From: a virus
Lineage: Duplodnaviria > Heunggongvirae > Uroviricota > Caudoviricetes
IMG/VR virus record: IMGVR_UViG_3300036829_000172
Coordinates: 126,195 to 190,194 of that record
DNA length: 64,000 nucleotides
Direction: 5' to 3' (one strand)
Numbering within the stretch: position 1 is the stretch's first letter; every line of letters begins with the position of its first letter. Below are positions 1,349 to 29,389 of the stretch, in pieces. The position numbers and the translations under genes are program-made. The notes beneath the pieces are model-generated. The model was not told the origin of the DNA. It ran no database searches and saw nothing but the letters and a program-made list of their open reading frames with translations.

Positions 1349-1524
1349 CATCGGGCAACGCGCCAATCCATGCGCCGCATCGGCCAGAACGTCAATCCGT
1401 GCGCGCATCGGCCAGAACCGCTATTCAATTTTTGAACACCCCCCCACGAGAGAACAGGGAAAACAACCCCCCATGAGTACCAACAACAACCAGCCGCATC
1501 GGCCAGAACGCCAATCGGGCGCCG
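1349..1524. repeat. degenerate ~30-bp direct repeats (catcggccagaacg(c/t)caatcc(g)tgcgc). Three copies are intergenic and a fourth lies inside the start of the next CDS; iteron-like.
   Basis: seen in sequence. Confidence 0.5.
1421..1470 (+). promoter_or_regulatory. conserved leader motif copy (tattcaatttttgaacacccccccacgagagaacagg)
   Basis: IR ttcaN5tgaa + CACGAGAGA + ATG. Confidence 0.6.
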
Positions 1525-1862
1525 CACAGGCCGGCCCGTGGATACACGACCACCGGCGGGCGGCCCACGCACAGGCGCAGGCGCCAACCACCACCCCACC
1601 CGCCCCCATCACGTGGCGCGCCGCGGTCGTGGAGCGCGCCGCGGTCGTGGAGCTGGACCGTGCCACCCGCGCGTACCACCAAGCGATCGACGCGACCGAG
1701 CGGGCGGCGGCCGCGTGCAATTTCGCGTGGTACGACGCCGCGCGTAGCACAGAGCGGGAAGCGGCCGCCCGGTACGCGCTGGCTGTGCGTAGCGCGTATG
1801 TCGCGCGCAGCACGGCGCGTCGTTCCCTGGAAGCCGAGGATGGTGGGCAATGGTCTGTCTGA
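1473..1862 (+). CDS. hypothetical protein
   Basis: ORF; ATG directly after leader motif. Confidence 0.7.
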   Translation: MSTNNNQPHRPERQSGAAQAGPWIHDHRRAAHAQAQAPTTTPPAPITWRAAVVERAAVVELDRATRAYHQAIDATERAAAACNFAWYDAARSTEREAAARYALAVRSAYVARSTARRSLEAEDGGQWSV

Positions 1863-2053
1863 AAGTGACCCACGTCGACACCGCGCAGGGCCGGTACACC
1901 GTGGCGCTGTTCGTGACGGGCATCGACTACGAGGTCAATGTGCGCGATCCGCGCCGGCAGTGGACGGTTGTGGGTCGGTTTGACCCTGAGCAGCGCGACG
2001 CGGCGCATGCGCTGTACGCGTCCACGGTGCGGGAGTTAACGCCCGCGGTGTGA
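1850..2053 (+). CDS. hypothetical protein
   Basis: ORF; start overlaps the upstream stop (ATGgtctgtcTGA). Confidence 0.5.
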   Translation: MVCLKVTHVDTAQGRYTVALFVTGIDYEVNVRDPRRQWTVVGRFDPEQRDAAHALYASTVRELTPAV

Positions 2054-2165
2054 GTCAACCTGCCGTGCACGGTCGGGATTATTACTGCCCGTGCACGGCG
2101 TGATGGACTCAACCGGCGGTTCAGGCGAATGATTGCGGGAGTCTTATGCCTGTATTAAGTACGCG

Positions 2166-2193
2166 TGACATAAGGACCGGAGGCCGGTAGAAT
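2166..2193 (+). promoter_or_regulatory. SigA-type promoter copy 1: -35 TGACAT (2166-2171), 16-nt spacer, -10 TAGAAT (2188-2193)
   Basis: one of three ~45-bp near-identical elements (gcgtgacataaggaccgg...ggtagaatagtagttggaag); followed by leader + ATG at 2251. Confidence 0.55.
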
Positions 2194-2250
2194 AGTAGTT
2201 GGAAGTGGAAAGAAACACCCCACTCCCCCCACGAGAGAAGGAAGCCAGAA

Positions 2251-2499
2251 ATGAACAACACCATCGTTGCGCTTGCGGCAGCAGCGGCGGCGGCGAAGGT
2301 CTCGCAGGGCCATGCGGGACGCAATCCCGACATAAGCACAACCGTTCACAAAATGAACACCCCGCGAGAGAGAGAAACCGAAATGAGCAAACGCGAAATT
2401 ATTGCGCGCGTCGTGCGCGTCGCGTGGTTCTGCGGCGCGATATGCGTTGCGTTGGCCGCGGCCGGGCTGGGCGCGCTGATTCTGGGCGTGCTGCGATGA
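2251..2499 (+). CDS. small membrane protein. The frame reads through an internal copy of the leader motif; alternative internal start at 2383 gives a 38-aa TM peptide.
   Basis: ORF; promoter copy 1 + cacgagagaagga leader upstream of 2251. Second motif copy (2344-2382) lies in frame. Confidence 0.55.
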   Translation: MNNTIVALAAAAAAAKVSQGHAGRNPDISTTVHKMNTPRERETEMSKREIIARVVRVAWFCGAICVALAAAGLGALILGVLR

Positions 2500-2585
2500 A
2501 CACCGTAGCGGCGGCGATGGTGGCTGCCGCATTCCTGATCGGCCTGGCGTATCTGGCCATGGCGCTCACCGTCAACCACCAATAA
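2496..2585 (+). CDS. 29-aa hydrophobic peptide (MNTVAAAMVAAAFLIGLAYLAMALTVNHQ)
   Basis: ATGA overlap with upstream stop; very short. Confidence 0.3.
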   Translation: MNTVAAAMVAAAFLIGLAYLAMALTVNHQ

Positions 2586-2590
2586 CCCGA

Positions 2591-2646
2591 CTGTTCAAAA
2601 AATGAGCATTCAAAAAATGAACACCCCACGAGAAAGGGACACCGAA
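2591..2646 (+). promoter_or_regulatory. conserved leader motif, duplicated IR (ttcaaaaaatgagcattcaaaaaatgaacaccccacgagaaagg)
   Basis: seen in sequence. Confidence 0.6.
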
Positions 2647-2874
2647 ATGAGCAACACACCGATCAACCGAAGCGACTGCCAGTGTGGTGTGTGCGCGATG
2701 CTGGCGACAGCCACACCCACGCTGCACACCCACGCGACCCAGCGGGCGGCGCAGCAGTGCATACAACCGGGATGCGTCCCACCCATGTCCCGCCGGCACG
2801 TGATGCGGGCAGTGTTCAACGTCGTTGCTGAGCAGCACAGCGAAGCACTCCAGAAGCTGGCCGAACATGAGTGA
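2647..2874 (+). CDS. hypothetical Cys-rich protein (CQCGVC)
   Basis: ORF 2602..2874 trimmed to ATG after motif. Confidence 0.6.
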   Translation: MSNTPINRSDCQCGVCAMLATATPTLHTHATQRAAQQCIQPGCVPPMSRRHVMRAVFNVVAEQHSEALQKLAEHE

Positions 2875-3271
2875 GAACAGCGCGTTGGAGAACGAGCGGG
2901 CGTATCAGGCTGCGGTCAAAGCCGAGATTGCATCTCGGCGCAGCGACACCGACACGATTGAAGTGACCATGCCGGAGGATGCGTGGTTTGACGCGCAGCA
3001 CCGAGTTGACGTCGTGACCTACGACGACAGCGGGCCGGAGCGCCGCTACGTGCGCAGATGGTACTGGGCAACCGACGTCGAGGTGGAGGCGGCGTGGACG
3101 CATTGGGGCGAGCGGGGCGATTGGAACGCCGCGCTTCCCCTGTACTTCCCCACGCAGCGGAAGGCGAGCGCAATGGTCATCCACGCGCACCTGGACCGCG
3201 AGCGCGGAGTACGGGTGATAGACAGCTGGCCACCGTCCAGGATCGACGCGCAAGAGGTGGTGGCGTCATGA
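2867..3271 (+). CDS. hypothetical protein
   Basis: ATGAGTGA overlap with upstream stop. Confidence 0.65.
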   Translation: MSENSALENERAYQAAVKAEIASRRSDTDTIEVTMPEDAWFDAQHRVDVVTYDDSGPERRYVRRWYWATDVEVEAAWTHWGERGDWNAALPLYFPTQRKASAMVIHAHLDRERGVRVIDSWPPSRIDAQEVVAS

Positions 3272-3486: not shown

Positions 3487-3578
3487 GCGTCGGTCATGTG
3501 CGGTTACCCCAGAGCGACGCGCGATCACTCTGGGGCTACCGGGCAGAAGCCCGCACCCACGAGAGAGGACACAACCAC

Positions 3579-3938
3579 ATGAATGGACGCACGAAACTGA
3601 TCGCTGGCGGCGTGGCCGCTGGCGGTTTCATGCTGATAGGCGGCGCGCTCGTCGTCGGCGCGGGTATCGCCCGGGCCGACGTTGACGGCTACGCCTACGG
3701 CGGCGGGTCGATGGGCGACCGCGACGCGTACAGCTACTGGAACCAGACCGACGGCCTCGGTGTGTCCGCGACCGTAGCCGACGCGCAGCACTTCGCGGGC
3801 ACGGTTTGCGACCAGCGGGCCGCTGGTGTGTCCGAGGGCAAGCTGGTCAGCTGGGCCGCCGACGGCGGCTTCGACACTGTCGTGGCGCGTCTGGTCGTGC
3901 ACGGCGCCGAGTTCCACTTCTGCCCCACCTACTACTGA
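3579..3938 (+). CDS. secreted/membrane-anchored protein (N-terminal hydrophobic signal-like segment)
   Basis: cacccacgagagaggacacaaccacATG leader. Confidence 0.65.
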   Translation: MNGRTKLIAGGVAAGGFMLIGGALVVGAGIARADVDGYAYGGGSMGDRDAYSYWNQTDGLGVSATVADAQHFAGTVCDQRAAGVSEGKLVSWAADGGFDTVVARLVVHGAEFHFCPTYY

Positions 3939-3940
3939 CC

Positions 3941-4012
3941 CTCTGCCGCCCGGGGTGTTCATTCCGTGAACACCCCGGCAGCGGCTGCATCCAACCGAGA
4001 GAGGAAACCAAG
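3941..4012 (+). promoter_or_regulatory. leader motif copy (gtgttcattccgtgaacaccc...)
   Basis: IR gttcaN5tgaac. Confidence 0.55.
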
Positions 4013-4014
4013 AG

Positions 4015-4380
4015 ATGGACAGCATGGAATCGGTGCATCGCACCGACCTGGCGCGCCTGGAAGCGTTGGACGACCTGCGGCTGCTGCTGCAGAAGGCGGA
4101 GCTGGCGACCCGCTGGGTCGTGCAGCTGCAGGGCCTGGGCGGTGCGGGTCGCGGCGAGCATTGCCTGCGCGACCCCGCGGATCGGGCCAACGCGCGGCGC
4201 AATGCGGAGGAGCTGGCGCGCGAAACCAGCAGCGTGGCACGCGAAGCAATCGACAACGTCGCCAGCGGCCACCCGCGCAAACTGACCGACCTGCTCGAAC
4301 GCGTGACGCACTACGAGCGCCGCGTTCGGGCGCTGTGCCAGATGGGCGGGCTGCATATGGGCAACGAGCGGCTCTGGTAG
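4015..4380 (+). CDS. hypothetical protein
   Basis: ORF after motif. Confidence 0.7.
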   Translation: MDSMESVHRTDLARLEALDDLRLLLQKAELATRWVVQLQGLGGAGRGEHCLRDPADRANARRNAEELARETSSVAREAIDNVASGHPRKLTDLLERVTHYERRVRALCQMGGLHMGNERLW

Positions 4381-4488
4381 AGCCATGCGCGGTACTGACA
4401 CCACGGAGGGGAGCACACCCGAGCGCTCGGGTGTGTTGCCTCCTGTCGTGTTTCAGACAGGAACACCCACGAGAAATTGGAGAGAACC

Positions 4489-4761
4489 ATGCGTGAGCAG
4501 GGAAAGCATGTGCGTGCCATCGACGTGTTCCCCGGCGACTACGTGCTGTCCATCGACGGTAAGTCGATCGGCGCCAAAGTCGCTGACGTGATCGGCGACG
4601 GCACCGGCGGTGTGCGGATCGAGTTCAAGGGACGCAAGACCCACTACTGGGCCGGGCCGCGCGGCACGTACGTCCGCGTTCAGGTCAAGACCTCGTACGC
4701 CGCCGACGGTGTCACCAACAGCAAGGCGTACGCGTCGGCCCGAGCCGCCGCCGGTATCTGA
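4489..4761 (+). CDS. hypothetical protein
   Basis: cacccacgagaaattggagagaaccATG leader. Confidence 0.65.
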   Translation: MREQGKHVRAIDVFPGDYVLSIDGKSIGAKVADVIGDGTGGVRIEFKGRKTHYWAGPRGTYVRVQVKTSYAADGVTNSKAYASARAAAGI

Positions 4762-5591: not shown

Positions 5592-5657
5592 CCGGGCGTT
5601 CAAAAGTTCAAAAAATGAACACAACATCCGAACGAGAAAACAGAAGAGAGAGAGCAG
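5591..5657 (+). promoter_or_regulatory. leader motif copy (gttcaaaagttcaaaaaatgaacacaac...gagagagagcagATG)
   Basis: seen. Confidence 0.6.
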
Positions 5658-6071
5658 ATGACTGACAGCGTAGAGAGCAACGACGGAACCGACGGGCCAT
5701 CGACATTCGAGAAGGTGGTGCTGGTGACGATCGCCGCCAACACCGCCGTGCTCGTGTGGGGGCTGTGTGATCACCACCACGAAGAACTGATCGACCCGAT
5801 GCACACCGGGTTCCTGGCGTTTTTCGTCGTCGAGCTGCTGGTGCGGCTGCGGGCGGCGGGGTCGCTGCGCGTATTCATGGCCAGCGGCTGGAATGTGTTC
5901 GATTCGGTCGTGATCGGGCTGTCGCTGCTGCCGGTGCTCGGTGTCGGTGTCACCCTGCTGCGGGTGGCGCGCGGGGCGCGTGTCCTGCACAGCCTGCGTC
6001 ACGTCAGCCATCTACGCGCGGCCGGGTTTGTGCGGCTGTTCACCCGGCAGTCAGCAGAAGGAGAGGTCTGA
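5658..6071 (+). CDS. voltage-sensor-domain-like 4-TM protein. S4-like LLRVARGARVLHSLRHVSHLR with Arg at every third position; S2-like FFVVELLVRL; S3-like WNVFDSVVIGLSLLP.
   Basis: translation resembles S1-S4 of voltage-gated ion channels (ion_trans-like) with no pore domain. Confidence 0.6.
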   Translation: MTDSVESNDGTDGPSTFEKVVLVTIAANTAVLVWGLCDHHHEELIDPMHTGFLAFFVVELLVRLRAAGSLRVFMASGWNVFDSVVIGLSLLPVLGVGVTLLRVARGARVLHSLRHVSHLRAAGFVRLFTRQSAEGEV

Positions 6072-6150: not shown

Positions 6151-6197
6151 CCTGGTGCTCAGAAATTGAACACCACACCCACGAGAGAGAGAACACC
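6151..6197 (+). promoter_or_regulatory. leader motif copy
   Basis: gctcagaaattgaacaccacacccacgagagagag. Confidence 0.55.
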
Positions 6198-6380
6198 ATG
6201 AACAACAACATCGCCGGGTTTCCGGCCACGTCACGCAGCGAGGAACTGATGATGGGGGCGCGCACCACGCGTCGTCGTCGTCGCAGTGCCTGGGGGCCGC
6301 CGCTGGGTGACATCCGGGTAGGACAACCCGTGTACAGGCCGTTGGTCACCACGGCCGAACCCGCAGACGAGACGAGGTAA
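6198..6380 (+). CDS. hypothetical protein
   Basis: ORF after motif. Confidence 0.5.
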   Translation: MNNNIAGFPATSRSEELMMGARTTRRRRRSAWGPPLGDIRVGQPVYRPLVTTAEPADETR

Positions 6381-6386: not shown

Positions 6387-6617
6387 ATGCGGACAATGAT
6401 CGCGGCGTTGGCGCTGGCCTTGGCCGGCGCCGGCGTCGCGTGTCCGGCGGCGGCTGCGGCCAGCCCGAACGAGGACGAGGGTGGCTGGTCGTGCGTCGAT
6501 GACGGTAACCATGTGTGCGGGCCGGGTAATGCGGAAGGTAAACCGGCCGCGTGTTATGACGAGGGCGGCGTGATTGTGGCGCTGTGGCCGTGCCAGCCCG
6601 TGAGGCCGCAGCGGTGA
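6387..6617 (+). CDS. small secreted/lipoprotein-like protein (LALAGAGVAC lipobox-like, Cys-rich)
   Basis: ORF. Confidence 0.55.
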   Translation: MRTMIAALALALAGAGVACPAAAAASPNEDEGGWSCVDDGNHVCGPGNAEGKPAACYDEGGVIVALWPCQPVRPQR

Positions 6618-6961
6618 GCGCCGTGGAAGGCTTCGAGGCTCTCACGCGGGAGCAGCAGAAGCAGATGCTCGAATGGTTCATGCATCGAATCAAGTTCGAG
6701 CAGCGTGAGGAGCTGGCGGGTTCGTTACCGGCCGCGTACAACGCGTGGTGCGGCAGCGAGGTCGTCAAGGTTGTCAGCGTCAAGGATCCTGAGCGTGTTT
6801 GGCGCACCACGCGCACGGAGTTTGTCGGCAACGGTGGAGTCGGCCGGTTGATCAAGGTCAGGGTGGGGGAACCGGCTCCAGCGCTCACTGACGACGGTGA
6901 GACAGACGATGTTCAAGAATTGAACGCACCACGAGAAAGAGAGGGAAACCGAAATGGCTGA
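6614..6961 (+). CDS. hypothetical protein; 3' end reads through a leader motif copy (6901-6953)
   Basis: GTGA overlap start; stop overlaps next ATG. Confidence 0.5.
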   Translation: MSAVEGFEALTREQQKQMLEWFMHRIKFEQREELAGSLPAAYNAWCGSEVVKVVSVKDPERVWRTTRTEFVGNGGVGRLIKVRVGEPAPALTDDGETDDVQELNAPREREGNRNG

Positions 6962-8590: not shown

Positions 8591-8640
8591 CACCACGTTC
8601 AAAAAATGAACACCCACCACGAGAAAGAGAGAAACACCCC
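8591..8640 (+). promoter_or_regulatory. leader motif copy (cacgttcaaaaaatgaacacccaccacgagaaagagagaaac)
   Basis: seen. Confidence 0.6.
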
Positions 8641-8811
8641 ATGTCACGACCCGAAACCATGAACAGGCTGGAATTGATCACCCGGGAGCAGGCCGAGTCG
8701 TGGGCGGGTCGCGCGCTGTCCGACGATGAACTTGAACGACTCTCCGACGCCATCCCAAACTCCTCGATCCCCGACGCGGTCGACACGATCGTCTCCTCAT
8801 GGGAGGACTGA
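8641..8811 (+). CDS. 56-aa hypothetical acidic protein
   Basis: ATG right after motif; ATGA junction to next gene. Confidence 0.45.
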   Translation: MSRPETMNRLELITREQAESWAGRALSDDELERLSDAIPNSSIPDAVDTIVSSWED

Positions 8812-9014: not shown

Positions 9015-9151
9015 CCAAGACTGACTCTCCGCAGACGTGGCGTAGCCGCACTGTGATCCGGCGCCCTGGTAGGCACCAGAAAATCGTCTGGTTCCTTCCA
9101 GGGTGTCAGCCGACCCCTGACCAAAAACACCACGAGAAATTGGAGACAACC

Positions 9152-9466
9152 ATGGCGAAATATCAGGCCACCCGGCTTGAGAACGTCAACAGCATCGAAG
9201 ACCTCCGCGAGGTGCCGAAGCTGGCCATCACCCACGGCGTCGACGTCCAGCACGACAACGACGCGCGGGCATCGTTCGGCGCCGCGGCCCTGGTGGCATA
9301 CGCCGAACGCGCCGGCGGCGGCAAGAGCAACGAGTTCGAGGCGCAGCTGTCCGATCTGCTCGCCGACCTGCGTCACGTGTGCGATGCGCTGGGCCTGGAC
9401 TACGACGCAGCCGACACCACAGCACACGTCAACCACTGGCGAGAGATCCACGGCGAAGCGCTCTGA
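9152..9466 (+). CDS. hypothetical protein
   Basis: caccacgagaaattggagacaaccATG leader; the N-terminal extension in ORF 9011.. is less likely. Confidence 0.5.
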   Translation: MAKYQATRLENVNSIEDLREVPKLAITHGVDVQHDNDARASFGAAALVAYAERAGGGKSNEFEAQLSDLLADLRHVCDALGLDYDAADTTAHVNHWREIHGEAL

Positions 9467-9534
9467 GCCCGGCCTACTTGTCAGCACGCTGGCGCATACT
9501 CACACTTGAGAAACCACGAGATGGAGAAACAATC

Positions 9535-10410
9535 ATGACAACGAAAGCGCACGCTGTTCAAAAAATGAACACACCAGAGGCGGACCCGCCCGCCACCTAC
9601 ATCGCCGCGATACCCGCCGCCGACATGTTCGCCGACCTGAGCTATCAGCGGGAACCCGACATGCCGCGGGTGCGTCACATCGCCGCGCAGTGGGATGTGC
9701 GGCTCGTCGGCGTGCTGGACGTGTCCGACCGCGGCGAACACACCAGCCCGCGGTACGCCGTCATCGACGGACACCACCGGATGCGCGGCGCGCAGCTGCT
9801 CGACATCGCGCCGCCGCTGGTCGCCACCATCCACACCGGGTTGACCATCAAACAGGAGGCTGAGCTGTTCGACCGGCTCAACCGGGAACGCCGCCGGCTG
9901 ACCACCTGGGATCATTGGCGGGCCCGCACCATCGCCGGCGACCCGACAGTCCGGGCGATCCAGAAGGCGGTCGTCGAGCTGGACCTGGTGATCGGCGACG
10001 CGCCGAAACCCGGGTATGTGCGGTGCACGTCCACCTTGGAGAAGCTGCACACGCTGGGCGGTACACAGCTGGTCATCGACGTGCTGCACCTGCTGAAGCA
10101 GGCGTGGGGCCGTGACGTCACCTCGTTCGACGCGCCGCTCGTGCACGGTGTCGGCCTGGTGCTGCATTACCTGCCGAAGCGGGAACCGATCGACATGGAA
10201 CGGTTGACGACCGCGCTGGTGCAGGTCGAGCCGCGGCTGGTGAAAACGAGTGCGGTGGCGCGGCGTGACACGATGACGGGCAGCGCCGCGAAGCTGGTCG
10301 CGGTGGTGGTGATGGATCTGTACAACAAGACGCCGGGCCACAAGATTCTGGTGTCTACCCGCACGTTCGGTCCGACCGCCCGCAACGCCCGCTCCACGAC
10401 GGTGGCGTAA
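9535..10410 (+). CDS. ParB-like nuclease domain protein, DGQHR/DndB-like subtype (SYQRE ... VIDGHHR)
   Basis: ccacgagatggagaaacaatcATG leader. An IR copy gttcaaaaaatgaac lies just inside the 5' coding region (9558-9572). Confidence 0.65.
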   Translation: MTTKAHAVQKMNTPEADPPATYIAAIPAADMFADLSYQREPDMPRVRHIAAQWDVRLVGVLDVSDRGEHTSPRYAVIDGHHRMRGAQLLDIAPPLVATIHTGLTIKQEAELFDRLNRERRRLTTWDHWRARTIAGDPTVRAIQKAVVELDLVIGDAPKPGYVRCTSTLEKLHTLGGTQLVIDVLHLLKQAWGRDVTSFDAPLVHGVGLVLHYLPKREPIDMERLTTALVQVEPRLVKTSAVARRDTMTGSAAKLVAVVVMDLYNKTPGHKILVSTRTFGPTARNARSTTVA

Positions 10411-11997: not shown

Positions 11998-12123
11998 CTC
12001 TGTGGAGAGTGGGGTGCCGCGTGATGTTTTGGATTCAGTTTGTAGTTAATTACGCACTGCTTTTATCGGCCACTATCCTCACGCTTCTGACCTGACGCGG
12101 CCGGCCCCCCGGTTAGTGCCGCG

Positions 12124-12151: not shown

Positions 12152-12200
12152 AGTAGTTAGAAGTTGAAAGAAAGATTCCCCACGAGAGAAGGAGCACATC

Positions 12201-18646: not shown

Positions 18647-18673
18647 GCACCACGAGATTGGAGAGAAACGAAA

Positions 18674-19200: not shown

Positions 19201-19275
19201 CGGCGCGCTCAAAAAATGAACACCCCCAATGAGATGAACACCACCAATGAGAATGAGAAACAAAGGAGAAAGTCA
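19201..19275 (+). promoter_or_regulatory. leader motif copy (long, degenerate: caaaaaatgaacacccccaatgagatgaacaccaccaatgagaatgag)
   Basis: seen. Confidence 0.5.
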
Positions 19276-21206: not shown

Positions 21207-21223
21207 CGCTGTTTAAGGCCGCG

Positions 21224-21251
21224 TGACATAAGGAGTCGATAAGGGTAAAAT
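21224..21251 (+). promoter_or_regulatory. SigA-type promoter copy 3 (TGACAT-N16-TAAAAT)
   Basis: third copy of gcgtgacataagga...tagttg element. Confidence 0.5.
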
Positions 21252-21284
21252 TGTAGTTGAAAGGTTGAGAAACCATCAGATCAG

Positions 21285-21384
21285 CCCGTCATGCGTGCGA
21301 GAGAAAACCAGCTAGACACGCATGACGGGGGCATGAGACCACCCGCCGCGGTACCTCTCTCTTTCTCTCGGGGTCCGCGGCGGG
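21285..21384 (+). ncRNA. structured 5' leader or small RNA with two perfect hairpins. Hairpin 1: 13-bp stem at 21285-21297 and 21317-21329, loop cgagagaaaaccagctaga. Hairpin 2: 10-bp stem at 21342-21351 and 21375-21384, CU-rich loop uaccucucucuuucucucggggu that is antisense to the conserved CACGAGAAAGAGAGA leader.
   Basis: seen in sequence, between promoter copy 3 and HNH gene. Confidence 0.4.
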
Positions 21385-21414
21385 TCTGCCAATCGTGAAA
21401 GGAGGAAAGCAGGA

Positions 21415-21705
21415 ATGGGACGTAATCGCCGCACCGGACCTAGGCGTGGTAGCCACCCGTCGCTCAAGGTGAAGCTGTTTGAGCGCGACGGCTGGCAAGC
21501 AAAGGACGGCACATGGTTCGTCCGGTGTGCTTTCGGATGCGGCGCGGTCCTTACCCGAACCACGGCAACCATTGACCGCCACCCTGTTCCTGGCCGCCAC
21601 GGCGGAACCTATCGCTTAGACAACACCCGGCTGGCCTGTGCCCCCTGCAACACAGCGGATGGTGGCCAAGCAGCCATTGGAAGAAAGAAGAGGTCGACAA
21701 CATGA
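21415..21705 (+). CDS. HNH endonuclease (C..C...HP...GG.Y..DN..LAC..CN)
   Basis: canonical SD gaaaggaggaaagcaggaATG. Confidence 0.65.
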   Translation: MGRNRRTGPRRGSHPSLKVKLFERDGWQAKDGTWFVRCAFGCGAVLTRTTATIDRHPVPGRHGGTYRLDNTRLACAPCNTADGGQAAIGRKKRSTT

Positions 21706-22139
21706 GGAGCTGCGTCGTGTGCGGGCGGGAGTTCGCCTACGAACCCAAACCTGGGCGCCCGCCGGTGACGTGCTCACCGGAATGCCAACGTGAAAACAAG
21801 GCCCGTCGGGGCGCGACCCGGAAATGCCCGCCAGACAAGCACGGCACAGCCACCGGGTACAGCTGGTACAAGTGCAGCTGCGCCGAATGCAGGCACTGGG
21901 CACGCGACTACCAGCGGACCCGGCGCAGCGCCACACGTTCAGACACGACGAAGACGAGGCGCACAACCGGACGGTCAGAGGCCAAACGCAGCCGGAGCCG
22001 GCGACGCGACCGAGATGCGGCGATAGCCGGTCTAGTCGCGCGGGGCTGGTCGTATCGGCGGATCGCGGCGCGCCTCGGCTGCTCGGTGGGGTCAGTGCAC
22101 AACGCCATAAAACGGGCAGAAGCCGACCACACAAGATGA
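21702..22139 (+). CDS. DNA-binding protein: N-terminal Cys4 zinc-ribbon, C-terminal HTH (GWSYRRIAARLGCSVGSVHNAIKR)
   Basis: ORF. Confidence 0.65.
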   Translation: MRSCVVCGREFAYEPKPGRPPVTCSPECQRENKARRGATRKCPPDKHGTATGYSWYKCSCAECRHWARDYQRTRRSATRSDTTKTRRTTGRSEAKRSRSRRRDRDAAIAGLVARGWSYRRIAARLGCSVGSVHNAIKRAEADHTR

Positions 22140-22140: not shown

Positions 22141-22203
22141 CATGCTCAGTTTTTGAACACCCCACGAGATGAAAAACCCCACGAGAAAAGGAGCACCACA
22201 AAG
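22141..22203 (+). promoter_or_regulatory. leader motif copy
   Basis: ctcagtttttgaacaccccacgagatgaaaaaccccacgagaaaagg. Confidence 0.55.
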
Positions 22204-22587
22204 ATGAGCACAGAACTCTGGGAGCGGTGGGTAGCTTCCACCACCGAACCTCAATACCGCATCAAACGCGGCGCGAAAATCCGCGTCGAGCAGACACAGC
22301 ACACCGTCGGCGGCGGCGTGCTGCCGGGTATGCCACCCGTCACGTACACCCGCGCACGAAAGTGGATCACGTTCCCCGACGTCATCGACGGCGTCAAGGT
22401 GATCATCGACATGCCCGAGAACGCCACCACCAAACCGTGCGATCAGCGCCGCCACCGCGACTGCCGGCACCGGCTGGGCGCTGCGCAGGAAGGCGGGGTC
22501 ATCCTCAAAGTGGGGCTGCCCGGGTTCCACTGGCGGTGCGGCTGCCCGTGTCACAACGATCCGGCGCAGGCCGGGATGCTGTTGTAG
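22204..22587 (+). CDS. hypothetical protein
   Basis: ORF trimmed. Confidence 0.6.
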   Translation: MSTELWERWVASTTEPQYRIKRGAKIRVEQTQHTVGGGVLPGMPPVTYTRARKWITFPDVIDGVKVIIDMPENATTKPCDQRRHRDCRHRLGAAQEGGVILKVGLPGFHWRCGCPCHNDPAQAGMLL

Positions 22588-22597: not shown

Positions 22598-22912
22598 ATG
22601 AAAGTTCAACGACGGCTGCGTCTGATCGCAGTCGACGGAAAGATGATCGCGCCACCACCACCACCAGCGCCCCCGAAGATCACCAGCATCGGGCAGGCGC
22701 TGGCGGTGATGCGCCTGTCAGTAGCCATCATCACGTCCGAACCTGCCGACTTGTTCCGCGGCTACAGCAGCGACGAAACGGCCGAGCAGTACGCGGCTGT
22801 CGATCGGATGGTGGAAGCCTTCCGCGTCCTGGACCGGCTGCTCACCAGGCGTTCGAAAAATGAACACCCCCACCCCACGAGAAAACCCACGAGAGAAGAG
22901 AGAACGAAATGA
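22598..22912 (+). CDS. hypothetical protein with PPPPPAPP segment; 3' end reads through the next leader motif
   Basis: ORF. Confidence 0.5.
   Translation: MKVQRRLRLIAVDGKMIAPPPPPAPPKITSIGQALAVMRLSVAIITSEPADLFRGYSSDETAEQYAAVDRMVEAFRVLDRLLTRRSKNEHPHPTRKPTREERTK
22851..22908 (+). promoter_or_regulatory. leader motif copy (ggcgttcgaaaaatgaacacccccaccccacgagaaaacccacgagagaagagag)
   Basis: seen. Confidence 0.6.
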
Positions 22913-23721: not shown

Positions 23722-24233
23722 CCATGGCCGAATCGCTGTACGGGCCGATGGTCGACGTGCTGCAGGGGGCGTTCGGTGTCGAATTCGAGTTCTGGGATAC
23801 CGGCGGCGGCTGCAACGCCCTGGTCGGCGAGTTCGAGGGAGACACCACGGTGTATATCACCGATGCGCCCGGCGCCCGGTGCGGGCAGGAATGCCAAATC
23901 ACCGATCACCCGCTGCGGGTGCGTCACGGCGAAGCCACCGTGGGGTTCGCCGTGGGGGTGTACCGCGACGACCACCAAACCAGCGTCGCCTACGGCGAGT
24001 ACCCGGCGGCCTGCACCCGGCATCTGCCGGTCATCGTGGCCGAGCAGCTCACCGCGGCGTTAGGACGGCAGGTCACCGTGAACTGGCTGGGTCTGTGCGG
24101 TGATCTGGATCCGCGTGACCCCGTTGCGGGCTACCTCAACGAGCACGCCTGCATGTTGAAGACGCCGCACCACGACGAGCACCGCAGCGGCAGCGGCAGA
24201 ACATGGCCACACGCACCCACCACCACGAGATAG
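23718..24233 (+). CDS. hypothetical protein
   Basis: ORF. Confidence 0.6.
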   Translation: MTMAESLYGPMVDVLQGAFGVEFEFWDTGGGCNALVGEFEGDTTVYITDAPGARCGQECQITDHPLRVRHGEATVGFAVGVYRDDHQTSVAYGEYPAACTRHLPVIVAEQLTAALGRQVTVNWLGLCGDLDPRDPVAGYLNEHACMLKTPHHDEHRSGSGRTWPHAPTTTR

Positions 24234-24244
24234 GAGAACACGAC

Positions 24245-25243
24245 ATGACAATCACCATCACCCACACCCACGCCGAGGGCACCCTGCTGTCGGGCACCAG
24301 CCGCGGCGACGGCACCGCCGAGGTCCTCAAAAGGGCCGGATCGTGGCGTTGGTCCCGCAACGTCGGCTGGTATATCCGCAACGCGCGCTACAAAAACGCC
24401 AACGTGCATCTGATCGAGAACACCCGAAAGGCGTTGCAGGACGCCGGGTTCGAGGTGAACGTAGAAATCGACAACACGTTCCTGCCTACCGCCGAGGTCG
24501 AGGGAGCCAAGGCCGCTCAGGCGGACGCGCGTGCGGACGCGTTGGCCGCGAAAGCGGAGCGCAAAGGCGCGGCCGCAGACGCCGCAGGTGCGGCCCATGA
24601 TCGGGCGTGCGAGGCGTTGCCGCCGGGCGGAGAGCCGATCCACGTCGGGCATCACAGCGAACGTCGCCACCGAAAGGCGATCGACAAGGCGTGGGACGCG
24701 CTGGGCAAAGCGGTCAACGCTGGTGAGGAAGCCGAGCGGGCCGAGCGCCGCGCTGAGGTAGCGGCCAAGGCCACCGAGTACCGCTACAACCCGGTCACCG
24801 TCAAGAACCGCATCGACAAGCTGGAGGCCGACCAACGCCGCGACCAGCGGGAACTCGACGGGTACAAGCGGGTGGTGGCGCGTACCGCCGACGTCGTGTA
24901 CGTCGACGAACACGAGGGCGCGACCGGGCACCGGCGGGACACGCTGACCGAGCGGATGACGCAGCGCGCCGATCAGATCACCTACTGGAAAGGCGTGTAC
25001 GCCGGCCTGCAGGCCGACGGCGCCGCCACCAGCTACGGCCCGGACAGCATCGCCAAAGGCGACTGGATCAAACGGCGCGGCAGCTGGTATGAGGTGGTGC
25101 GGGTCAACAAGAAGTCGGTGTCGGTGCACCTGTGCCCGGAGTTCACCTGGACGCACACGATCGGCTACCACGAAATCCAAGGCCACCGGCCCAAAGACAC
25201 CAGCCCAACCAGCCCCACCAACCTCGACGGGGAGGCATCATGA
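24245..25243 (+). CDS. hypothetical protein (DUF3560-like by recollection, low certainty)
   Basis: ccaccacgagataggagaacacgacATG leader. Confidence 0.65.
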   Translation: MTITITHTHAEGTLLSGTSRGDGTAEVLKRAGSWRWSRNVGWYIRNARYKNANVHLIENTRKALQDAGFEVNVEIDNTFLPTAEVEGAKAAQADARADALAAKAERKGAAADAAGAAHDRACEALPPGGEPIHVGHHSERRHRKAIDKAWDALGKAVNAGEEAERAERRAEVAAKATEYRYNPVTVKNRIDKLEADQRRDQRELDGYKRVVARTADVVYVDEHEGATGHRRDTLTERMTQRADQITYWKGVYAGLQADGAATSYGPDSIAKGDWIKRRGSWYEVVRVNKKSVSVHLCPEFTWTHTIGYHEIQGHRPKDTSPTSPTNLDGEAS

Positions 25244-26275: not shown

Positions 26276-26472
26276 CCGCCGACGACGACATTGTTGTGAC
26301 CGACCACTTCGTGCGCGCCCGCCACGCCGACTTTGTCGAGTGCGCCTGTGGCCGGCTTTACGTGAACGGCGCCGACCATGACGAGCACGTGTTCCAGATC
26401 CGGGTGGACCGCGCCCAGATGCGGCGCCGCCGCGAGGCCCGTGTTCAAAAGCTGACACCCACAACTGAATAA
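26272..26472 (+). CDS. hypothetical protein
   Basis: GTGA overlap. Confidence 0.5.
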   Translation: MTADDDIVVTDHFVRARHADFVECACGRLYVNGADHDEHVFQIRVDRAQMRRRREARVQKLTPTTE

Positions 26473-26499
26473 CACCCACGAGAAAACAAGGAGAACACC
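26441..26499 (+). promoter_or_regulatory. leader motif copy (degenerate IR gttcaaaagctgacaccc ... cacccacgagaaaacaagg)
   Basis: seen. Confidence 0.5.
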
Positions 26500-27687
26500 A
26501 TGAGTGACACCATGAAGATCGACGCGGCCATGCTGGCGGAGGAGGTGGCCTGGCTCGCGAAAGGCAAAGCCGCCTCGTCCGCAGTGTGCTGCCTGCCCCC
26601 CATGCACCTGGCCACCAGCCCCGACGGGCTGTGCCTGCGGCGCACCGACCTCGAGCTGTTCCGCGAAACGGTGCTGCCCACAGAGGGCGGCGTCGACGCC
26701 GCGGTCCTGGTCCTGCTCGATCCGGTTAAGCTGTCGGCGCTGCTCAGAGGCGCCGCCGGCTACGCCACCCTGGAAATAACCGACCTCGGGAGGCCAAACG
26801 GTGTAAGCACCGGCGTTGTGGCCATCGAGGTCGGTGGGCGGCGGATCACGCTGCGCAGCGCCGGCGACGTCGACGACTTCCCCGACTGGCCGCTGTTCGA
26901 GGCGATCGGGAAGCCCGCCGTGGTGGGGGCCGGGCAGCTGGCGCGGGCGTTGACGTCGGTTGGCAACGACGACACCCTGCCGATGCTGACCGGTGTGCGG
27001 TTCGACGACGGTGTGATGGCCTCCACCGACCGGTTCCGGCTCACCGCCATCACGTACGCCGAGCACGGGTTCACCGCGCTGGTGCCGAATTCTGCGCTGC
27101 GCCCGTTCGCGGCCGGGACGGACGTCGTCACCGTCGAACACGGGAAACTCGTCGGCATAGGCGTCGGCGTCGGACATGGCGGCGCGGTGCAGGTCAGCAG
27201 CGGCGGGCGCTCCATCATCTCCCGGTTGCTGGACGCCGAGTTCCCCAAGTGGCGGCAGCTGATCCCCACCGAGGCGCCGGTGGCGGCGATGATCTCCCGC
27301 ACCGAGCTGCTCGACGCTCTCGGCGACGGAGAACAGGTGACGCTGCAGCTACGCGCCGACGACACCATGACCGTCACAAGCAGCGACCGTGACGGCGAGG
27401 TGTCGGTCCAGCAGCAAATCGTGGCGACCATCCTGGACGGCCGCGGCGAGCTGCCGTTCACGATCACGCTCAACACGGCGAATCTGACCGGCTGCGTCAA
27501 GGGCATCACGGGCGGCGTGCTGAAATTCGCGGCGAGCACACCGTCGCGGCCGCTGCTGCTGACCGGCGTGGGCGACGACGAGTTACACCTGGTCATGCCG
27601 ATACGGCTACCACCCGACCCCAAGCCTGAACCGGCTGCCGACCCCAAGCCTGAACCGGCTGCCGACCCCGAGCCCGAAGGGCGCTGA
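26500..27687 (+). CDS. dnaN: DNA polymerase III beta subunit-like sliding clamp with C-terminal tandem repeat (PKPEPAAD x2)
   Basis: three-domain length; LLDAEFPKWRQLIP motif typical of beta clamps. Perfect 24-bp tandem repeat at 27614-27661. Confidence 0.8.
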   Translation: MSDTMKIDAAMLAEEVAWLAKGKAASSAVCCLPPMHLATSPDGLCLRRTDLELFRETVLPTEGGVDAAVLVLLDPVKLSALLRGAAGYATLEITDLGRPNGVSTGVVAIEVGGRRITLRSAGDVDDFPDWPLFEAIGKPAVVGAGQLARALTSVGNDDTLPMLTGVRFDDGVMASTDRFRLTAITYAEHGFTALVPNSALRPFAAGTDVVTVEHGKLVGIGVGVGHGGAVQVSSGGRSIISRLLDAEFPKWRQLIPTEAPVAAMISRTELLDALGDGEQVTLQLRADDTMTVTSSDRDGEVSVQQQIVATILDGRGELPFTITLNTANLTGCVKGITGGVLKFAASTPSRPLLLTGVGDDELHLVMPIRLPPDPKPEPAADPKPEPAADPEPEGR

Positions 27688-27693
27688 GGTCAA

Positions 27694-27732
27694 GCTGCGG
27701 CGCACGGGCTTAACGGGTCTGTGCGCCGCAGC
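27694..27732 (+). terminator. 12-bp perfect stem hairpin (gctgcggcgcac...gtgcgccgcagc)
   Basis: seen downstream of the clamp gene. Confidence 0.45.
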
Positions 27733-27816
27733 ACCGCCAGCCGACACGCCGGGGCTAGGTGTTGGACTCCCGTTATCAGCGCGCTGTAGCCTCGGCGAGT
27801 TATCCGTTACCACGAG

Positions 27817-28146
27817 ATGGGGAGCCCTGAAGTGAACCACGACGACGACACGCCCGGTAGGCCACAGGGACGGATTAGCGACCGGCTACGGGAAGATCAA
27901 CTCATGAAGAACAACCGCTTCGGTGGGTTCAGCAGCGAAGCGATCCGTCAACGGCGGATCGCCACCCTCGAAGCGCATCAGGACGGTCGGCGGGCCTACA
28001 TCGCCGACACCGAAGGCATCATCGCGCGTAAGCAACTCGAGATCGACAACCTGCGCGCCCAATCGGCACCAACATCGCAACAGCGCGCTGTACAATTATG
28101 GGGCTGTGAGAACGGCGAAGACGCCGTGTGCGAACTCAACGCATAG
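27817..28146 (+). CDS. hypothetical protein (start uncertain; alternatives GTG 27832, ATG 27904)
   Basis: ORF; ccacgagATGG context. Confidence 0.45.
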   Translation: MGSPEVNHDDDTPGRPQGRISDRLREDQLMKNNRFGGFSSEAIRQRRIATLEAHQDGRRAYIADTEGIIARKQLEIDNLRAQSAPTSQQRAVQLWGCENGEDAVCELNA

Positions 28147-28193
28147 CGAACACCCACGAGAGACAAACACCACGAGATTGGAGAACCCGAAAA

Positions 28194-28484
28194 ATGAATT
28201 CCGAAGTGGCCGCGGTGATCGTCGGCCCCAAGAAACGCAGCTTTCTTAGACGACACAAGCTCGCCGTCGCCCTTGCAGCGATCGGCACGCTGTTCGCGGT
28301 GCTGCCCAAACACCGCGTCGCGGTCGCGGGGATCCTGCTGTGCAGCGTATTGGCGGTCGGCTGTGTGATCGCGGCCGTGCTCGTCGCCAACTTCAGCACA
28401 CAGCCCGACAAGTCGCCGACGGTGCGGCCCTCGGACCCGTCGTCGTCCGTTTGGTGCACCGCCAACCCGAAAGCGTTCTGCTGA
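28194..28484 (+). CDS. membrane protein (two TM segments)
   Basis: cacgagagacaaacaccacgagattggagaacccgaaaaATG. Confidence 0.6.
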   Translation: MNSEVAAVIVGPKKRSFLRRHKLAVALAAIGTLFAVLPKHRVAVAGILLCSVLAVGCVIAAVLVANFSTQPDKSPTVRPSDPSSSVWCTANPKAFC

Positions 28485-28702
28485 TGGCCGGGCAAACAGG
28501 CAGGCCAGAAGAAACCACGCTACTCGGCAACCTCGTCGCGGCGGCGTTAGCTGGTGACCGGCAGACGGTGCGACAAATGCTGCTGATGCTCGATGCCACA
28601 GAACGAGCCGTCGTCGCGGAAGGTATCGACTTGATCCGACAGCAGCTCGACCTTCTGCCGACGGCCGTCGACGTCATGTGGAAATTCGTCGACGACCAGT
28701 GA
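28484..28702 (+). CDS. hypothetical protein
   Basis: TGATG overlap. Confidence 0.5.
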   Translation: MAGQTGRPEETTLLGNLVAAALAGDRQTVRQMLLMLDATERAVVAEGIDLIRQQLDLLPTAVDVMWKFVDDQ

Positions 28703-28983
28703 GACTGTTCCGCCGCCGGAGGTACTTCTACGATCGATTCACGTTCGATGAGTTCTCGCAGTGGAGCTACGACATGTTCCGCATAGGCTTGTCCGTGTCA
28801 GCGTGGCAGGGGGATTACGGCAAAGCCGAATGTCTAAACTGTCGCAGCGTCGTGAGCATCGGAGTACCGAGTATGACCGGCTTGGAGTACGGCAAGCAGC
28901 ACCGAGAAGTGTGTGGCGACCGGAATCTGCCGGACGTCGTTCGACGAGGTTTACCCGAAGCGTTGTCCCGTATCGGAGAGTGA
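28699..28983 (+). CDS. hypothetical protein
   Basis: GTGA overlap. Confidence 0.5.
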   Translation: MRLFRRRRYFYDRFTFDEFSQWSYDMFRIGLSVSAWQGDYGKAECLNCRSVVSIGVPSMTGLEYGKQHREVCGDRNLPDVVRRGLPEALSRIGE

Positions 28984-28990
28984 AAACGAC

Positions 28991-29245
28991 ATGGCCGAAA
29001 CGACCGGGCCGCCGATGCAGCCGCTACCGCCGGAAGCCGTGGCCGGGGTAGACCAGCGTGCGGGGCCATGCGAGGCTGCCCTCGATGATCTGGTCGCCAA
29101 GTGGCGCATCATCGCGGCGCGCCGCGGCAGCGCCGGCGCGACCGGCGCAATCGCCATGGACTTCTACACCACTCAGATCCGCGGTATTAACAACATCGTC
29201 GACCTGCTGGCATTCGCGATCGCCCGCCTCGCCGAGAAGGACTGA
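28991..29245 (+). CDS. hypothetical protein
   Basis: ORF trimmed. Confidence 0.5.
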   Translation: MAETTGPPMQPLPPEAVAGVDQRAGPCEAALDDLVAKWRIIAARRGSAGATGAIAMDFYTTQIRGINNIVDLLAFAIARLAEKD

Positions 29246-29389
29246 GGTCGAGCCTGAGGTGTTCACCACCTTTTGAACACCTCTCACAGGGGGCCGGGGC
29301 GGCGGACCTTCATTGTGGACAGGGGCAACCCGCTCTTAACCCGTCGCCTGGACCCCGACCCGCGCGCAGCGTAACACCCGGACGTAAAA

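Follow-up and report, generated by a model that had tools for sequence, protein, structure and literature searches.

A 64,000-nucleotide stretch of DNA from an uncultured tailed phage (Caudoviricetes; IMG/VR record IMGVR_UViG_3300036829_000172, positions 126,195 to 190,194; this whole stretch is called the window below) carries, in front of many of its genes, a leader in which a short palindrome of consensus TGTTCA-AAAAA-TGAACA precedes an oriented CACGAGA motif and a start codon, and it raises the question of what this two-part element is and whether its palindrome is read as DNA or as RNA. Our searches revealed that the element is the 17-bp repeat of Cluster O mycobacteriophages in diverged form, its sequence being a new variant and its lineage new and distant; as to its mode of action, we tentatively favor a recognition site on DNA. 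The exact palindrome GTTCA-N5-TGAAC (GTTCANNNNNTGAAC) occurs 11 times, all reported on the plus strand, and the 17-mer frame TGTTC-N7-GAACA five times, where dinucleotide-preserving shuffles of the window led us to expect 0.07 and 0.01 copies, respectively. A relaxed scan permitting a single mismatch in an arm, or a spacer of 4 or 8 nt, raised the count to ~26 copies spanning 235 to 33824, and found no palindrome of this type in the remaining 34–64 kb. The second part of the element, CACGAGARAG with at most one mismatch, was found 28 times (27 on the plus strand; 8.6 expected), and exact CACGAGA 32 times on the plus strand vs. twice on the minus strand; 28 of these 32 lie 11–34 nt (mostly 13–17 nt) upstream of an ATG or GTG beginning an ORF of 41 or more codons, and all of these are located between 372 and 30110.

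The two parts are joined in a fixed order. In 18 leaders a palindrome is followed by a CACGAGA-type motif and a start codon, with 24–45 nt between the end of the palindrome and the ATG, and the leader of a ParB-like gene, which has CAATGAGA variants, is a 19th; about 12 further leaders have the CACGAGA module alone. The palindrome begins 3–25 nt past the upstream stop codon and stands 3–10 nt ahead of the start-associated module, which reads (R)AACACC-(C)n-CACGAGA(G/A)AG...ATG in one orientation, while gene junctions that overlap by 1–4 nt have neither palindrome nor CACGAGA. The right arm and the ACACC next to it are far better preserved than the left arm, which is mutated in ~11 of 25 copies. 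A first-pass annotation made by reading the sequence had claimed at least 18 palindrome-bearing leaders, about a dozen with the CACGAGA part alone (including that of rsr on the minus strand), and the spacers AAAAA, TTCCG, TTCCT, and a T-rich one, and in all of this we came to the same result, adding the spacers TTTTT and GGTTT. We likewise located the copies it had placed inside ORFs or read through by them (at 2344, 6911, 22851, 9556, and 33810) and an orphan copy in the intergenic region 29246–29564; its series began at 1421, however, and a tandem pair already lies at 235–264.

By its proteins the window belongs to a distant relative of the Cluster O mycobacteriophages, Corndog and its kin (34–47% amino acid identity), the AAA-ATPase being 47% identical to Corndog gp96. 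Homologs of Corndog gp118, gp105, gp95, gp93, gp90 (ParB-like), gp88, gp87 (Ku), and gp84 (clamp) occur in conserved order, making the region syntenic with Corndog genes 118 to 84. Gene content across the 64 kb is non-structural, save for one weak tail-protein-like match, and further includes rsr, a replication-initiator-like gene, and DnaQ; among the genes examined we saw no repressor and no integrase. When each third of the window was searched against 50,697 phage records for near-identical DNA, just short mosaic matches came back, and exact-pattern scans of viral and genome collections for GTTCAAAAAATGAACACC and for GAACACC-N0-6-CACGAGAGAG returned single chance matches only. The close relatives (L063 and L077) were reached through protein look-ups only, and further lineages, which share the synteny of the ParB-like, Ku, and clamp genes, were found by protein-guided searches. 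The closest relative is L077, with 81% amino acid identity in the ParB-like protein.

The Cluster O repeat was described as a 17-bp dyad, 5'-TGTTCGGNNNCCGAACA, present in 34 copies in Corndog, with invariant arms, a mostly AAA or TTT centre, 11 copies inside ORFs, and no known function (Cresawn et al. 2015, PMC4351075; see also the Ryadel announcement, PMC6439249). The first-pass annotation had pointed to a palindrome of this kind in mycobacteriophages encoding Ku and a beta clamp, and correctly: it is this repeat. The window is syntenic with these phages and has flanks and orthologous positions in common with them. Both elements have a 17-bp frame with outer TGTTC...GAACA and an A/T-rich centre, both occur in tens of copies that are densest in the AAA-ATPase/ParB-like/Ku/clamp operon, and both stand at the orthologous junctions before gp105, the AAA-ATPase, gp95, and Ku with the same downstream flank. 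The differences lie in the inner bases (A-AAAAA-T in the window vs. GG-NNN-CC, GG-AAA-CC in Corndog), in the window's arms, which are 5–6 bp, AT-rich, and often degenerate on the left, and in the overall distance of the window phage, which is merely 34–47% identical in its proteins. The published consensus has no copy in the window at 0–1 mismatch and one at two mismatches, which is no more than chance. Read along the local direction of transcription, the Corndog copies continue from the right arm into ACACC(CC)-CACGA(G/A)A-purines-ATG, i.e., ACACC-CCCACGAGAGAG-SD-ATG as in the window (SD, Shine-Dalgarno sequence); the paper describing the repeat (PMC4351075) makes no mention of CACGA, GAGAG, or Shine-Dalgarno in connection with it.

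Comparison of the lineages showed nine palindrome variants across eleven genomes or contigs, among them TGTTCA-AAAAA-TGAACA in the window (~26 copies), GTTCA-N5-TGAAC in L077 (11 copies, all perfect), TGTTCGG-NNN-CCGAACA in Corndog (34 copies plus three one-mismatch variants), GG-TGTACGG-AAY-CCGTACA-CC in L062 (11 copies), TGTTCAA-NNN-TTGAACA in L064 (eight), TGTTCAAC-A-GTTGAACA in L065 (six), (T)GTCCGG-WWW-CCGGAC(A) in L066/L067 (29), and GGTGTCC-N6-GGACACC in L083 (eight) and L084 (17). Within a genome the arms are nearly uniform, being perfect in 11/11 copies in L077, 34/34 in Corndog (per PMC4351075), and 11/11 in L062; between lineages they change symmetrically (TGTTCGG, TGTACGG, GTCCGG, TGTTCA, TGTTCAA, TGTTCAAC, GTGTCC), while the 3' flank ACACC is kept in every lineage. 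Copies in Corndog, L062, L065, L066, L083, and L084 have ACACC-CCCACGA(G/A)A-SD-ATG downstream, and throughout L062, L064, L065, L066/L067, L083, L084, and L077 the CCCACGA-type leader is common property and the palindrome lineage-specific. The composite oriented architecture, in Corndog as well as here, and the concerted symmetric diversification over at least nine variants appear to be unreported in the literature available to us.

The L077 copies stand at junctions orthologous to those of the window, and where they are perfect, seven window counterparts are degenerate, which suggests that the constraint on the palindrome has relaxed in the window lineage with ACACC-CACGAGA left intact. Aligned orthologous leaders of the two are highly identical throughout and have diverged too little for the constraints on the different parts to be told apart. 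The damage in the seven copies (GCTCA, GTTCG, TGAGC, a 1-nt deletion, a 3-nt insertion) falls nearly always in the left arm or spacer.

For the CACGAGA part, a role as translation leader is well supported: in our reading it belongs with the start-associated sequences (SAS), as an extended Shine-Dalgarno leader poor in U, and it is fairly secure that such a sequence acts at the RNA level. The 30 nt upstream of CACGAGA-type starts consist of 43% A, 30% C, 23% G, and 4% T, and being almost U-free the leader is unstructured. Against the mycobacterial 16S rRNA 3' tail, the best duplex of CACGAGA-type starts averaged -9.05 +/- 1.3 kcal/mol vs. -6.6 +/- 3.1 kcal/mol for other genes. The purine tract would pair with the CU-rich 3' tail of 16S rRNA, and ~30 genes would thereby receive a uniform, strong ribosome-binding site independent of translational coupling; the conserved CAC and ACACC positions allow no anti-SD pairing. 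The window motif has variants reading CACGAGATTGGAGA, which match the motif GATTGGAGAC before genes in L001, L002, L008, and L010, IMG/VR contigs that are distant AAA-ATPase relatives. The SAS of Cluster K was described in 2011 (PMC3203893), Microbacterium phages of Cluster EF have one as well and those of Cluster EG have 18-bp intergenic inverted repeats (PMC7302621), and the function of start-associated sequences was still called unverified in 2025 (PMC12699233). The Cluster K sequence resembles the one in the window in being an asymmetric motif conserved in one orientation over the ribosome-binding site of a non-structural gene subset, in its partial complementarity to the 16S tail with some conserved positions unable to pair, and in having an inverted repeat with variable spacer ahead of about half the copies. 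However, its consensus is GGGATAGGAGCCC and that of the window CACGAGAGAG ((A)CC-CACGAGA(G/A)AG), the same kind of motif from another sequence family; its repeats (ESAS) have two imperfect 17-bp arms, in place of the compact 15–17-bp palindrome here, and its host phages are unrelated to the window.

What, then, is the palindrome for? The first-pass annotation had proposed either a hairpin for RNA processing or stabilization or an operator for a dimeric regulator, and both proposals survive. We lean, with odds we would put somewhat short of even, toward a sequence-specific DNA recognition site for a dimeric phage factor and not a self-sufficient RNA hairpin. The first-pass annotation had pictured a 5-bp stem with an A5 loop in RNA; this structure is thermodynamically marginal, most hairpins of the window and L077 coming to ~-3.7 kcal/mol, and L077 nonetheless keeps 11/11 of its weak copies perfect. 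Sense-strand folding of 31-nt segments gave a mean of -5.7 kcal/mol for the window copies vs. -6.8 kcal/mol for random 31-mers, with 8/26 copies weaker than -3 kcal/mol; those of Corndog average -12.7 kcal/mol. Sense-strand mismatches of the imperfect copies over all lineages (A.C 27, G.U 11, other 10) have no wobble bias, and it is this, together with the marginal hairpin, that favors sequence-specific recognition. Copy-specific extension of the stem into the flanks did not exceed a mismatched-partner control, the central spacers are A/T-rich in either orientation, and palindromes also occur inside ORFs (that at 9556 is conserved in L077) and in inverted orientation. The cassette would then mark the cistron boundaries of early, non-structural operons, its palindrome lying between the upstream stop codon and the start-associated sequence, where a dimeric phage factor would bind it on DNA. 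The candidate binder would be an orphan ParB/KorB/Noc-type protein from the same operon, and ~25 dispersed sites could let that one protein load along, coordinately control, or organize the early region, by analogy with the KorB operators of RK2 and the Noc sites; binding, the identity of the binder, and the effect of binding are all things we infer.

The candidate is encoded at 19276–20982 on the plus strand (568 residues; predicted CTPase-type N domain and helix-turn-helix (HTH) domain). It matches Pfam ParB_N (8e-7), reaches 51.7 bits against TIGR00180 (below the cut-off of 58.45), and aligns with residues 48–217 of Thermus Spo0J (1vz0), an alignment that takes in the CTP-binding motifs GxRRxxA and ENxxRxxL as well as the HTH. 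Its AlphaFold model has a pLDDT of 80–92 over residues 30–360, and a Foldseek search with this model returned as its top matches N-domain plus DNA-binding-domain structures of KorB, ParB, and Noc (2.5e-9 to 1e-6), which at the level of the model shows the fold. Every palindrome-bearing contig that covers this part of the operon has a homolog, and ten relatives lacking the palindrome have none within 10 kb of the AAA-ATPase gene. Among ~50 window proteins scanned, including the products of the genes flanking the ParB-like gene, there was no ParA match, and the palindromes are dispersed and not gathered in a centromere cluster as in ParABS systems. Canonical parS is TGTTNCACGTGAAACA, with outer TGTT...AACA as in the window palindrome, and a distant ParB in L074 is encoded 2 kb from six clustered TGTTCCTGCAGGAACA sites, which resemble canonical parS. 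ParB-CTPase clamps load at 13–16-bp palindromes in the KorB-OB system of plasmid RK2, Noc-NBS, and ParB-parS (PMC11790492). The window resembles these systems in the N-domain and HTH fold of its protein and in its many palindromes dispersed over one replicon, and KorB and Noc in particular in that no ParA partner was found; it differs in that its sites are 15–17 bp and stand at cistron junctions, not near promoters or the origin, in that binding is a candidate property only, and in the uncharacterized C-terminal half of the protein (~340 residues). Of other possible binders, an HTH protein at 21702–22139 is not conserved in Corndog or L062 and so is unlikely, and Ro60 (rsr) was set aside with no rsr homolog found in Corndog, which has the element.

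Several observations weigh against this reading and, within it, against the ParB-like protein. The palindrome varies in length over 15–18 bp (16 bp in L083/L084, 17 bp elsewhere, a 15-bp core in the window), and its uniformity within genomes could be produced by cassette duplication or gene conversion, e.g., in paired 43-nt leaders. The ParB-like family (484 homologs) is common on mycobacterial plasmids, whose homologs (51–54% identity) are closer to the window protein than is that of Corndog (43%), and we found no TGTNC palindromes in the whole of pMyong1 (51.5% homolog), in the 44 kb of pRAW examined (53% homolog), or in the "Adler" record (31% homolog). Recognition helices differ between lineages and show no clear correspondence to the sites: L062 (PERVKLSKAV) and L065 (PERVKQSKAV) have nearly the same helix, with sites that differ at several bases. 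The co-occurrence of protein and palindrome is also confounded with clade, Ku, the clamp, and gp88 co-occurring equally well. Setting co-occurrence and fold against the plasmid and helix counter-evidence, we regard the ParB-like protein as the best single candidate for the binder, and a doubtful one.

Two further observations concern ParB-related genes. The DUF6551 gene at 9535–10410 has a palindrome in its codons 8–12, and as DUF6551 occurs in phages fused to ParB-CTPase folds, one such fusion binding ATP (PMC12704722), the window may encode a second ParB-related function. Among the plasmids, pMyong1 (L078, NC_020275.1) has, at 103299–111508, eight copies of another intergenic cassette with an TGGCCACC-N4-GGTGGCCA centre (a 20-bp palindrome), ~300 nt before successive small genes downstream of the ParB-like homolog; the 44 kb of pRAW that we examined showed no such cassette. 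The record named "Mycobacterium phage Adler" (L075 and L076, KC960489.1, UNVERIFIED_ORG) encodes FtsK/SpoIIIE, an ESX-type AAA ATPase (EccA-like), ParA, and the ParB-like gene, and looks like a conjugative plasmid of pRAW type.

The alternative that survives best is that the palindrome acts in mRNA, where it would fold into a small hairpin marking the 5' boundary of every independently translated cistron in a polycistronic early transcript; the hairpin would be a processing mark and/or an end protection (capping the upstream cistron at its 3' end and the downstream one at its 5' end) or would insulate the ribosome-binding site, perhaps stabilized by an RNA-binding protein; we consider this a serious possibility, if one we would not bet on. 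Part of its evidence counts at the same time against recognition on DNA: the link between the palindrome and the start-associated motif, which acts at the RNA level, is tight and directional; no palindrome stands in the leaders behind the promoters at ~296, 2165, and 12123, where a primary 5' end would need no protection; inner positions in L084 vary and partly covary, with four pair types; and L001, L002, L008, and L010, which lack the palindrome and in which no ParB-like gene was found, have covarying GAAA/UUCG-loop (GNRA/UNCG) hairpins in the same slot, before the homologous GAUUGGAGA. Compensatory changes affect 7/18 consensus pairs of these hairpins, whose stem-loops are longer than the palindrome. 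A role in mRNA would also fit the retention of the palindrome at orthologous junctions across lineages with 35–50% identical proteins, the preservation of complementarity by every change between lineages at spacer sizes from 1 to 8 nt, and the stable hairpins of Corndog, L062, and L083/L084. However, the marginal folding given above, with a mean no better than random and 8/26 copies essentially unfolded, tells against it, as do the ~11 left arms mutated without compensation, the excess of A.C over G.U mismatches, the failure of stems to extend copy by copy, stems too short for RNase III, the ORF-internal and inverted copies, which have no place in such a model, and a palindrome in a promoter-proximal leader of L066. 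As to the leaders of the four contigs themselves, which have only the AAA-ATPase/gp95/gp93 trio in common with the window, they are 75–90 nt long (e.g., L008 9670–9756), a long stem, one side of which is made by the upstream stop codons (CTGAGTAG), encloses the covarying hairpin, and GATTGGAGAC and ATG follow; invariant 16-bp palindromes occur here too (TGAGTCA-NN-TGACTCA in L001/L002, TGATCCA-NN-TGGATCA in L008).

Less probable, and in our estimation rather improbable, is a cassette with no dedicated regulatory partner, i.e., a boundary sequence spread and homogenized by recombination that promotes gene-cassette shuffling, with the ribosome-binding site its sole molecular function. An exact 43-nt direct repeat (14342–14384 = 15021–15063) comprises the last codons and stop of two adjacent genes, the palindrome, and the CACGAGA start; the leaders at 12510 and 12693 are long and near-identical, and these identities, with the tandem palindromes and duplicated CACGAGA units, indicate that whole cassettes have been copied or converted within the genome. 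Spacer orientation looks inherited and not functional (AAA in Corndog leaders, TTT in L066), deletions and insertions with repeats as borders are documented in Cluster O (PMC4351075), and window copies are decaying where those of L077 are perfect. But homologous exchange needs no palindrome, the position at orthologous junctions has been kept over long divergence, and the dyad symmetry has survived in nine or more sequence variants, a sign that symmetry or pairing is under selection. That the element just reflects base composition, or the ordinary Shine-Dalgarno sequences of a GC-rich genome, can be dismissed almost entirely, since purine-rich ribosome-binding sites are indeed expected before genes but neither the shuffle counts (0.07 vs. 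11, 0.01 vs. 5, 8.6 vs. 28) and the 32:2 strand bias nor the conservation of CAC and ACACC with no part in anti-SD pairing would follow.

More familiar identities were tried and rejected. The cassette is not a promoter, having no -10/-35 pattern while separate conserved SigA-like promoters exist elsewhere, and TGAAC as a GGAAC-like -35 of ECF type has no matching -10. An intrinsic terminator would call for a U tract, where the palindrome is followed by ACACCCC-CACGAGA in leaders of 4% T. RNase III-type processing hairpins as in the T7 early region have a stem of ~20 bp, and stems here are 5–8 bp (9 bp in Corndog). An antitermination hairpin like boxB of lambda nut is contradicted by loops that are not conserved and by ~26 sites at internal junctions in place of one or two after early promoters. 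Taken as a start codon, the ATG within the palindrome (AAAATGAAC) shares the reading frame of the downstream start in a single copy only, and no Rfam family reached its gathering score anywhere in the window. The promoter-early stem-loop (PeSL) cassettes of T4-type phages are repeated, contain a stem-loop ahead of many small early genes, and are linked to gene shuffling; they resemble the window's element as a repeated regulatory cassette before small early genes and differ in carrying a promoter, whereas here the cassette has the ribosome-binding site and promoters are separate. The stoperators of Cluster A are asymmetric 13–14-bp sites bound by the immunity repressor of temperate phages (discussed in PMC4351075). 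These too are dozens of short sites in short intergenic gaps across transcribed regions, unlike which the window sites are symmetric and have no repressor or integrase beside them among the genes examined.

In detail, the composite leaders run along the plus strand as follows. The first (1423–1475) has ATTCA-ATTTT-TGAAC at 1423–1437, ACACCCCCC, CACGAGA at 1445, and ATG at 1473; the second (2344–2385), in frame within ORF 2251–2499, has GTTCA-CAAAA-TGAAC, CGCGAGAGAG at 2363, and ATG at 2383. Tandem palindromes 15 bp apart (2593–2607 and 2608–2622) precede CACGAGA at 2627 and ATG at 2647 (leader 2593–2649). At 3957–4017, GTTCA-TTCCG-TGAAC with six extra flanking pairs, the only really stable hairpin (-23.7 kcal/mol), is followed by ACCGAGAGAGG at 3994 and ATG at 4015, and at 4449–4491 the variant 17-mer TGTTTC-AGACA-GGAACA by CACGAGA at 4468 and ATG at 4489. 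GTTCA-AAAAA-TGAAC recurs at 5606–5660 (AACGAGA 5631, ATG 5658), at 8597–8643 (CACGAGAAAG 8618, ATG 8641), and at 14356–14401 (CACGAGA 14376, ATG 14399). The leader at 6157–6200 has GCTCA-GAAAT-TGAAC, CACGAGAGAG at 6180, and ATG at 6198, with a second CACGAGAGAG at 6138, upstream of the palindrome; that at 6911–6956 has GTTCA-AGAAT-TGAAC, CACGAGAAAG at 6930, and ATG at 6954 and is read through by ORF 6584–6961. The order is inverted at 9515–9570, where CACGAGA (9515) and the ATG of the DUF6551 gene (9535) precede GTTCA-AAAAA-TGAAC (9556–9570), which thus lies inside the ORF, 21 nt past the ATG, an arrangement also found in L077.

Further along, ATTCA-TTTTT-TGAAC at 12510–12557 is followed by CACGAGA at 12535 and ATG at 12555, and tandem palindromes (12693–12707 and 12708–12722) by CACGAGAGAG at 12732 and ATG at 12750 (leader 12693–12752). 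The Corndog gp105 homolog is preceded at 13758–13805 by GTTCA-GGTTT-TGAAC, CACGAGAGAG at 13781, and ATG at 13803, the AAA-ATPase (gp96 homolog) by a composite leader at 15035–15078, a junction at which Corndog, L062, L077, L083, and L065 also have the element, and the gp95 homolog by GTTCA-TTCCT-TGAAC, CACGAAAGAG at 16738, and ATG at 16757 (16712–16759). A 4-nt spacer distinguishes GTTCA-AAAC-TGAGC at 18635–18676 (CACGAGATTGGAGAG 18651, ATG 18674). The ParB-like gene leader (19207–19278) has GCTCA-AAAAA-TGAAC, the CAATGAGA variants, and AAAGGAGAAA, its likely start being ATG 19276. The last two have two CACGAGA units each: GCTCA-GTTTT-TGAAC with units at 22163 and 22180 and ATG at 22204 (22144–22206), and the Ku leader, GTTCG-AAAAA-TGAAC with units at 22876 and 22888 and ATG at 22909, within the 3' end of ORF 22598–22912 (22851–22911). 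Units 12–42 nt apart occur in several leaders (6138/6180, 22163/22180, 22876/22888, 28155/28171), and the doubling is kept in L077 before the homologs of the 22204 gene and Ku.

Leaders with CACGAGA only lie on the plus strand at 372–395 (ATG 393, downstream of the first promoter-like site), 2230–2253 (ATG 2251, downstream of the conserved promoter 2165–2200), 3558–3581 (ATG 3579), 9131–9154 (CACGAGAAATTGGAGAC, ATG 9152), 12181–12203 (ATG 12201, downstream of the conserved promoter 12123–12158), 24224–24247 (ATG 24245 of a DUF3560 gene, at whose junction L077 has a perfect palindrome), and 27811–27834 (GTG 27832). The clamp gene leader (26449–26502) retains a decayed palindrome, GTTCAAAAGCTG-ACACC, with one base deleted relative to L077, before CACGAGA at 26477 and ATG at 26500, and the leader at 28155–28196 a right half-site only (GAACACC), with two CACGAGA (28155, 28171) and ATG at 28194; the last plus-strand CACGAGA leader is at 30077–30112 (ATG 30110). 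On the minus strand, the sole gene with the motif is rsr, which encodes a Ro60-like RNA-binding protein (leader 43713–43735, CACGAGAAAG, CACGAGA 43735). Palindromes outside gene starts, all on the plus strand, are the tandem pair at 235–264 (GTTCG-AAAAC-TGAAC and ATTCA-AATAA-TGAAC), upstream of the first promoter-like site and with no start codon behind it; the orphan at 29261–29278, with an 8-nt spacer, after the stop of ORF 28913–29245, to which GTTCA-GCTTT-TGAAC corresponds at the same place in L077; and the outlying GTTCA-AAAAG-TGAAC at 33810–33824, whose flanks are complementary over a long stretch (-17 kcal/mol) and which lacks a CACGAGA module. The non-coding stretch behind the orphan (29279–29564; GGGGCCGGGGCGGCGGACCTTCATTGTGGACAGGGGC...) is well conserved in L077 and contains a GC-rich hairpin (GGCCCCGG...CCGGGGCC), its Rfam matches being weak and sub-threshold.

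The conserved SigA-like promoter, GTGACATAAGG-N12-TA(G/A)AAT-N-GTAGTT, has three copies (2165–2200, 12123–12158, 21223–21258; 0 expected by chance), with a fourth, looser promoter, TTGACA...CATTAT, at ~296–330. The metagenomic relative L066 repeats the -10 region and the TAGAATAGTAGTTGGA that lies downstream. Downstream of the third copy is a structured leader of ~155 nt (21259–21414, -68 kcal/mol) with hairpins at 21284–21328, whose loop bears the leader-like GCGAGAGAAAAC, and at 21342–21384 (stem CCCGCCGCGG/CCGCGGCGGG), whose loop, CUCUCUCUUUCUCUC, is complementary to the purine tract of the start-associated motif; the sense strand of the window has no second CT tract of this kind, and this one is conserved in L077 (11849). 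This RNA could be an anti-leader or anti-SD-mimic regulatory RNA, or could control the HNH gene at 21415 in cis. The rsr gene itself (41901–43844, minus strand) has a CACGAGA leader and matches a PHROG RNA-binding protein (1.5e-88), and two YrlA (Y-RNA-like) matches upstream of it on the same strand (43949–44013 and 44233–44335; 29.9 and 20.6 bits vs. a gathering score of 69) may mark a phage Y RNA. Elsewhere, a 137-residue protein (5658–6071; Pfam Ion_trans, 5.9e-14), for which L084 has a homolog-sized gene with the same Pfam match (18327–18743), is possibly a channel of minimal size encoded by the phage, or a membrane protein resembling a voltage sensor, and a 476-residue protein (31320–32750) has a below-cut-off NCBIfam match (4.3e-33) to the flotillin FloT scaffold, something unusual in a phage.

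Taken at its most ambitious, the recognition-site reading would have a lytic-type actinophage lineage use an orphan CTP-dependent ParB/KorB-like sliding clamp to regulate or organize the entire genome, the clamp loading at 25–35 palindromes that occupy almost all cistron boundaries of the early region, with site–protein co-evolution giving rise to the nine variants and a translational layer (the shared leader and the 21342–21384 hairpin RNA) acting on the same genes. We speculate on this in full awareness that it is unlikely; if it holds, the Cluster O repeats would have an explanation, and a global control circuit of the KorB kind would be on record in a phage for the first time. Catalogues have listed the Cluster O repeat and the actinobacteriophage start-associated sequences for over 10 years without a function, and the comparison made here leaves two testable hypotheses for the former, a ParB/KorB-like protein on dispersed operators and an intercistronic RNA hairpin, for which Corndog, cultivable on M. 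smegmatis, is a ready experimental system with the natural variants as built-in specificity controls. The uniform, U-free, strong leader is a possible portable translation signal for mycobacteria. For the phages themselves, the Cluster O repeat is not peculiar to one tight cluster but part of a wider, old family.

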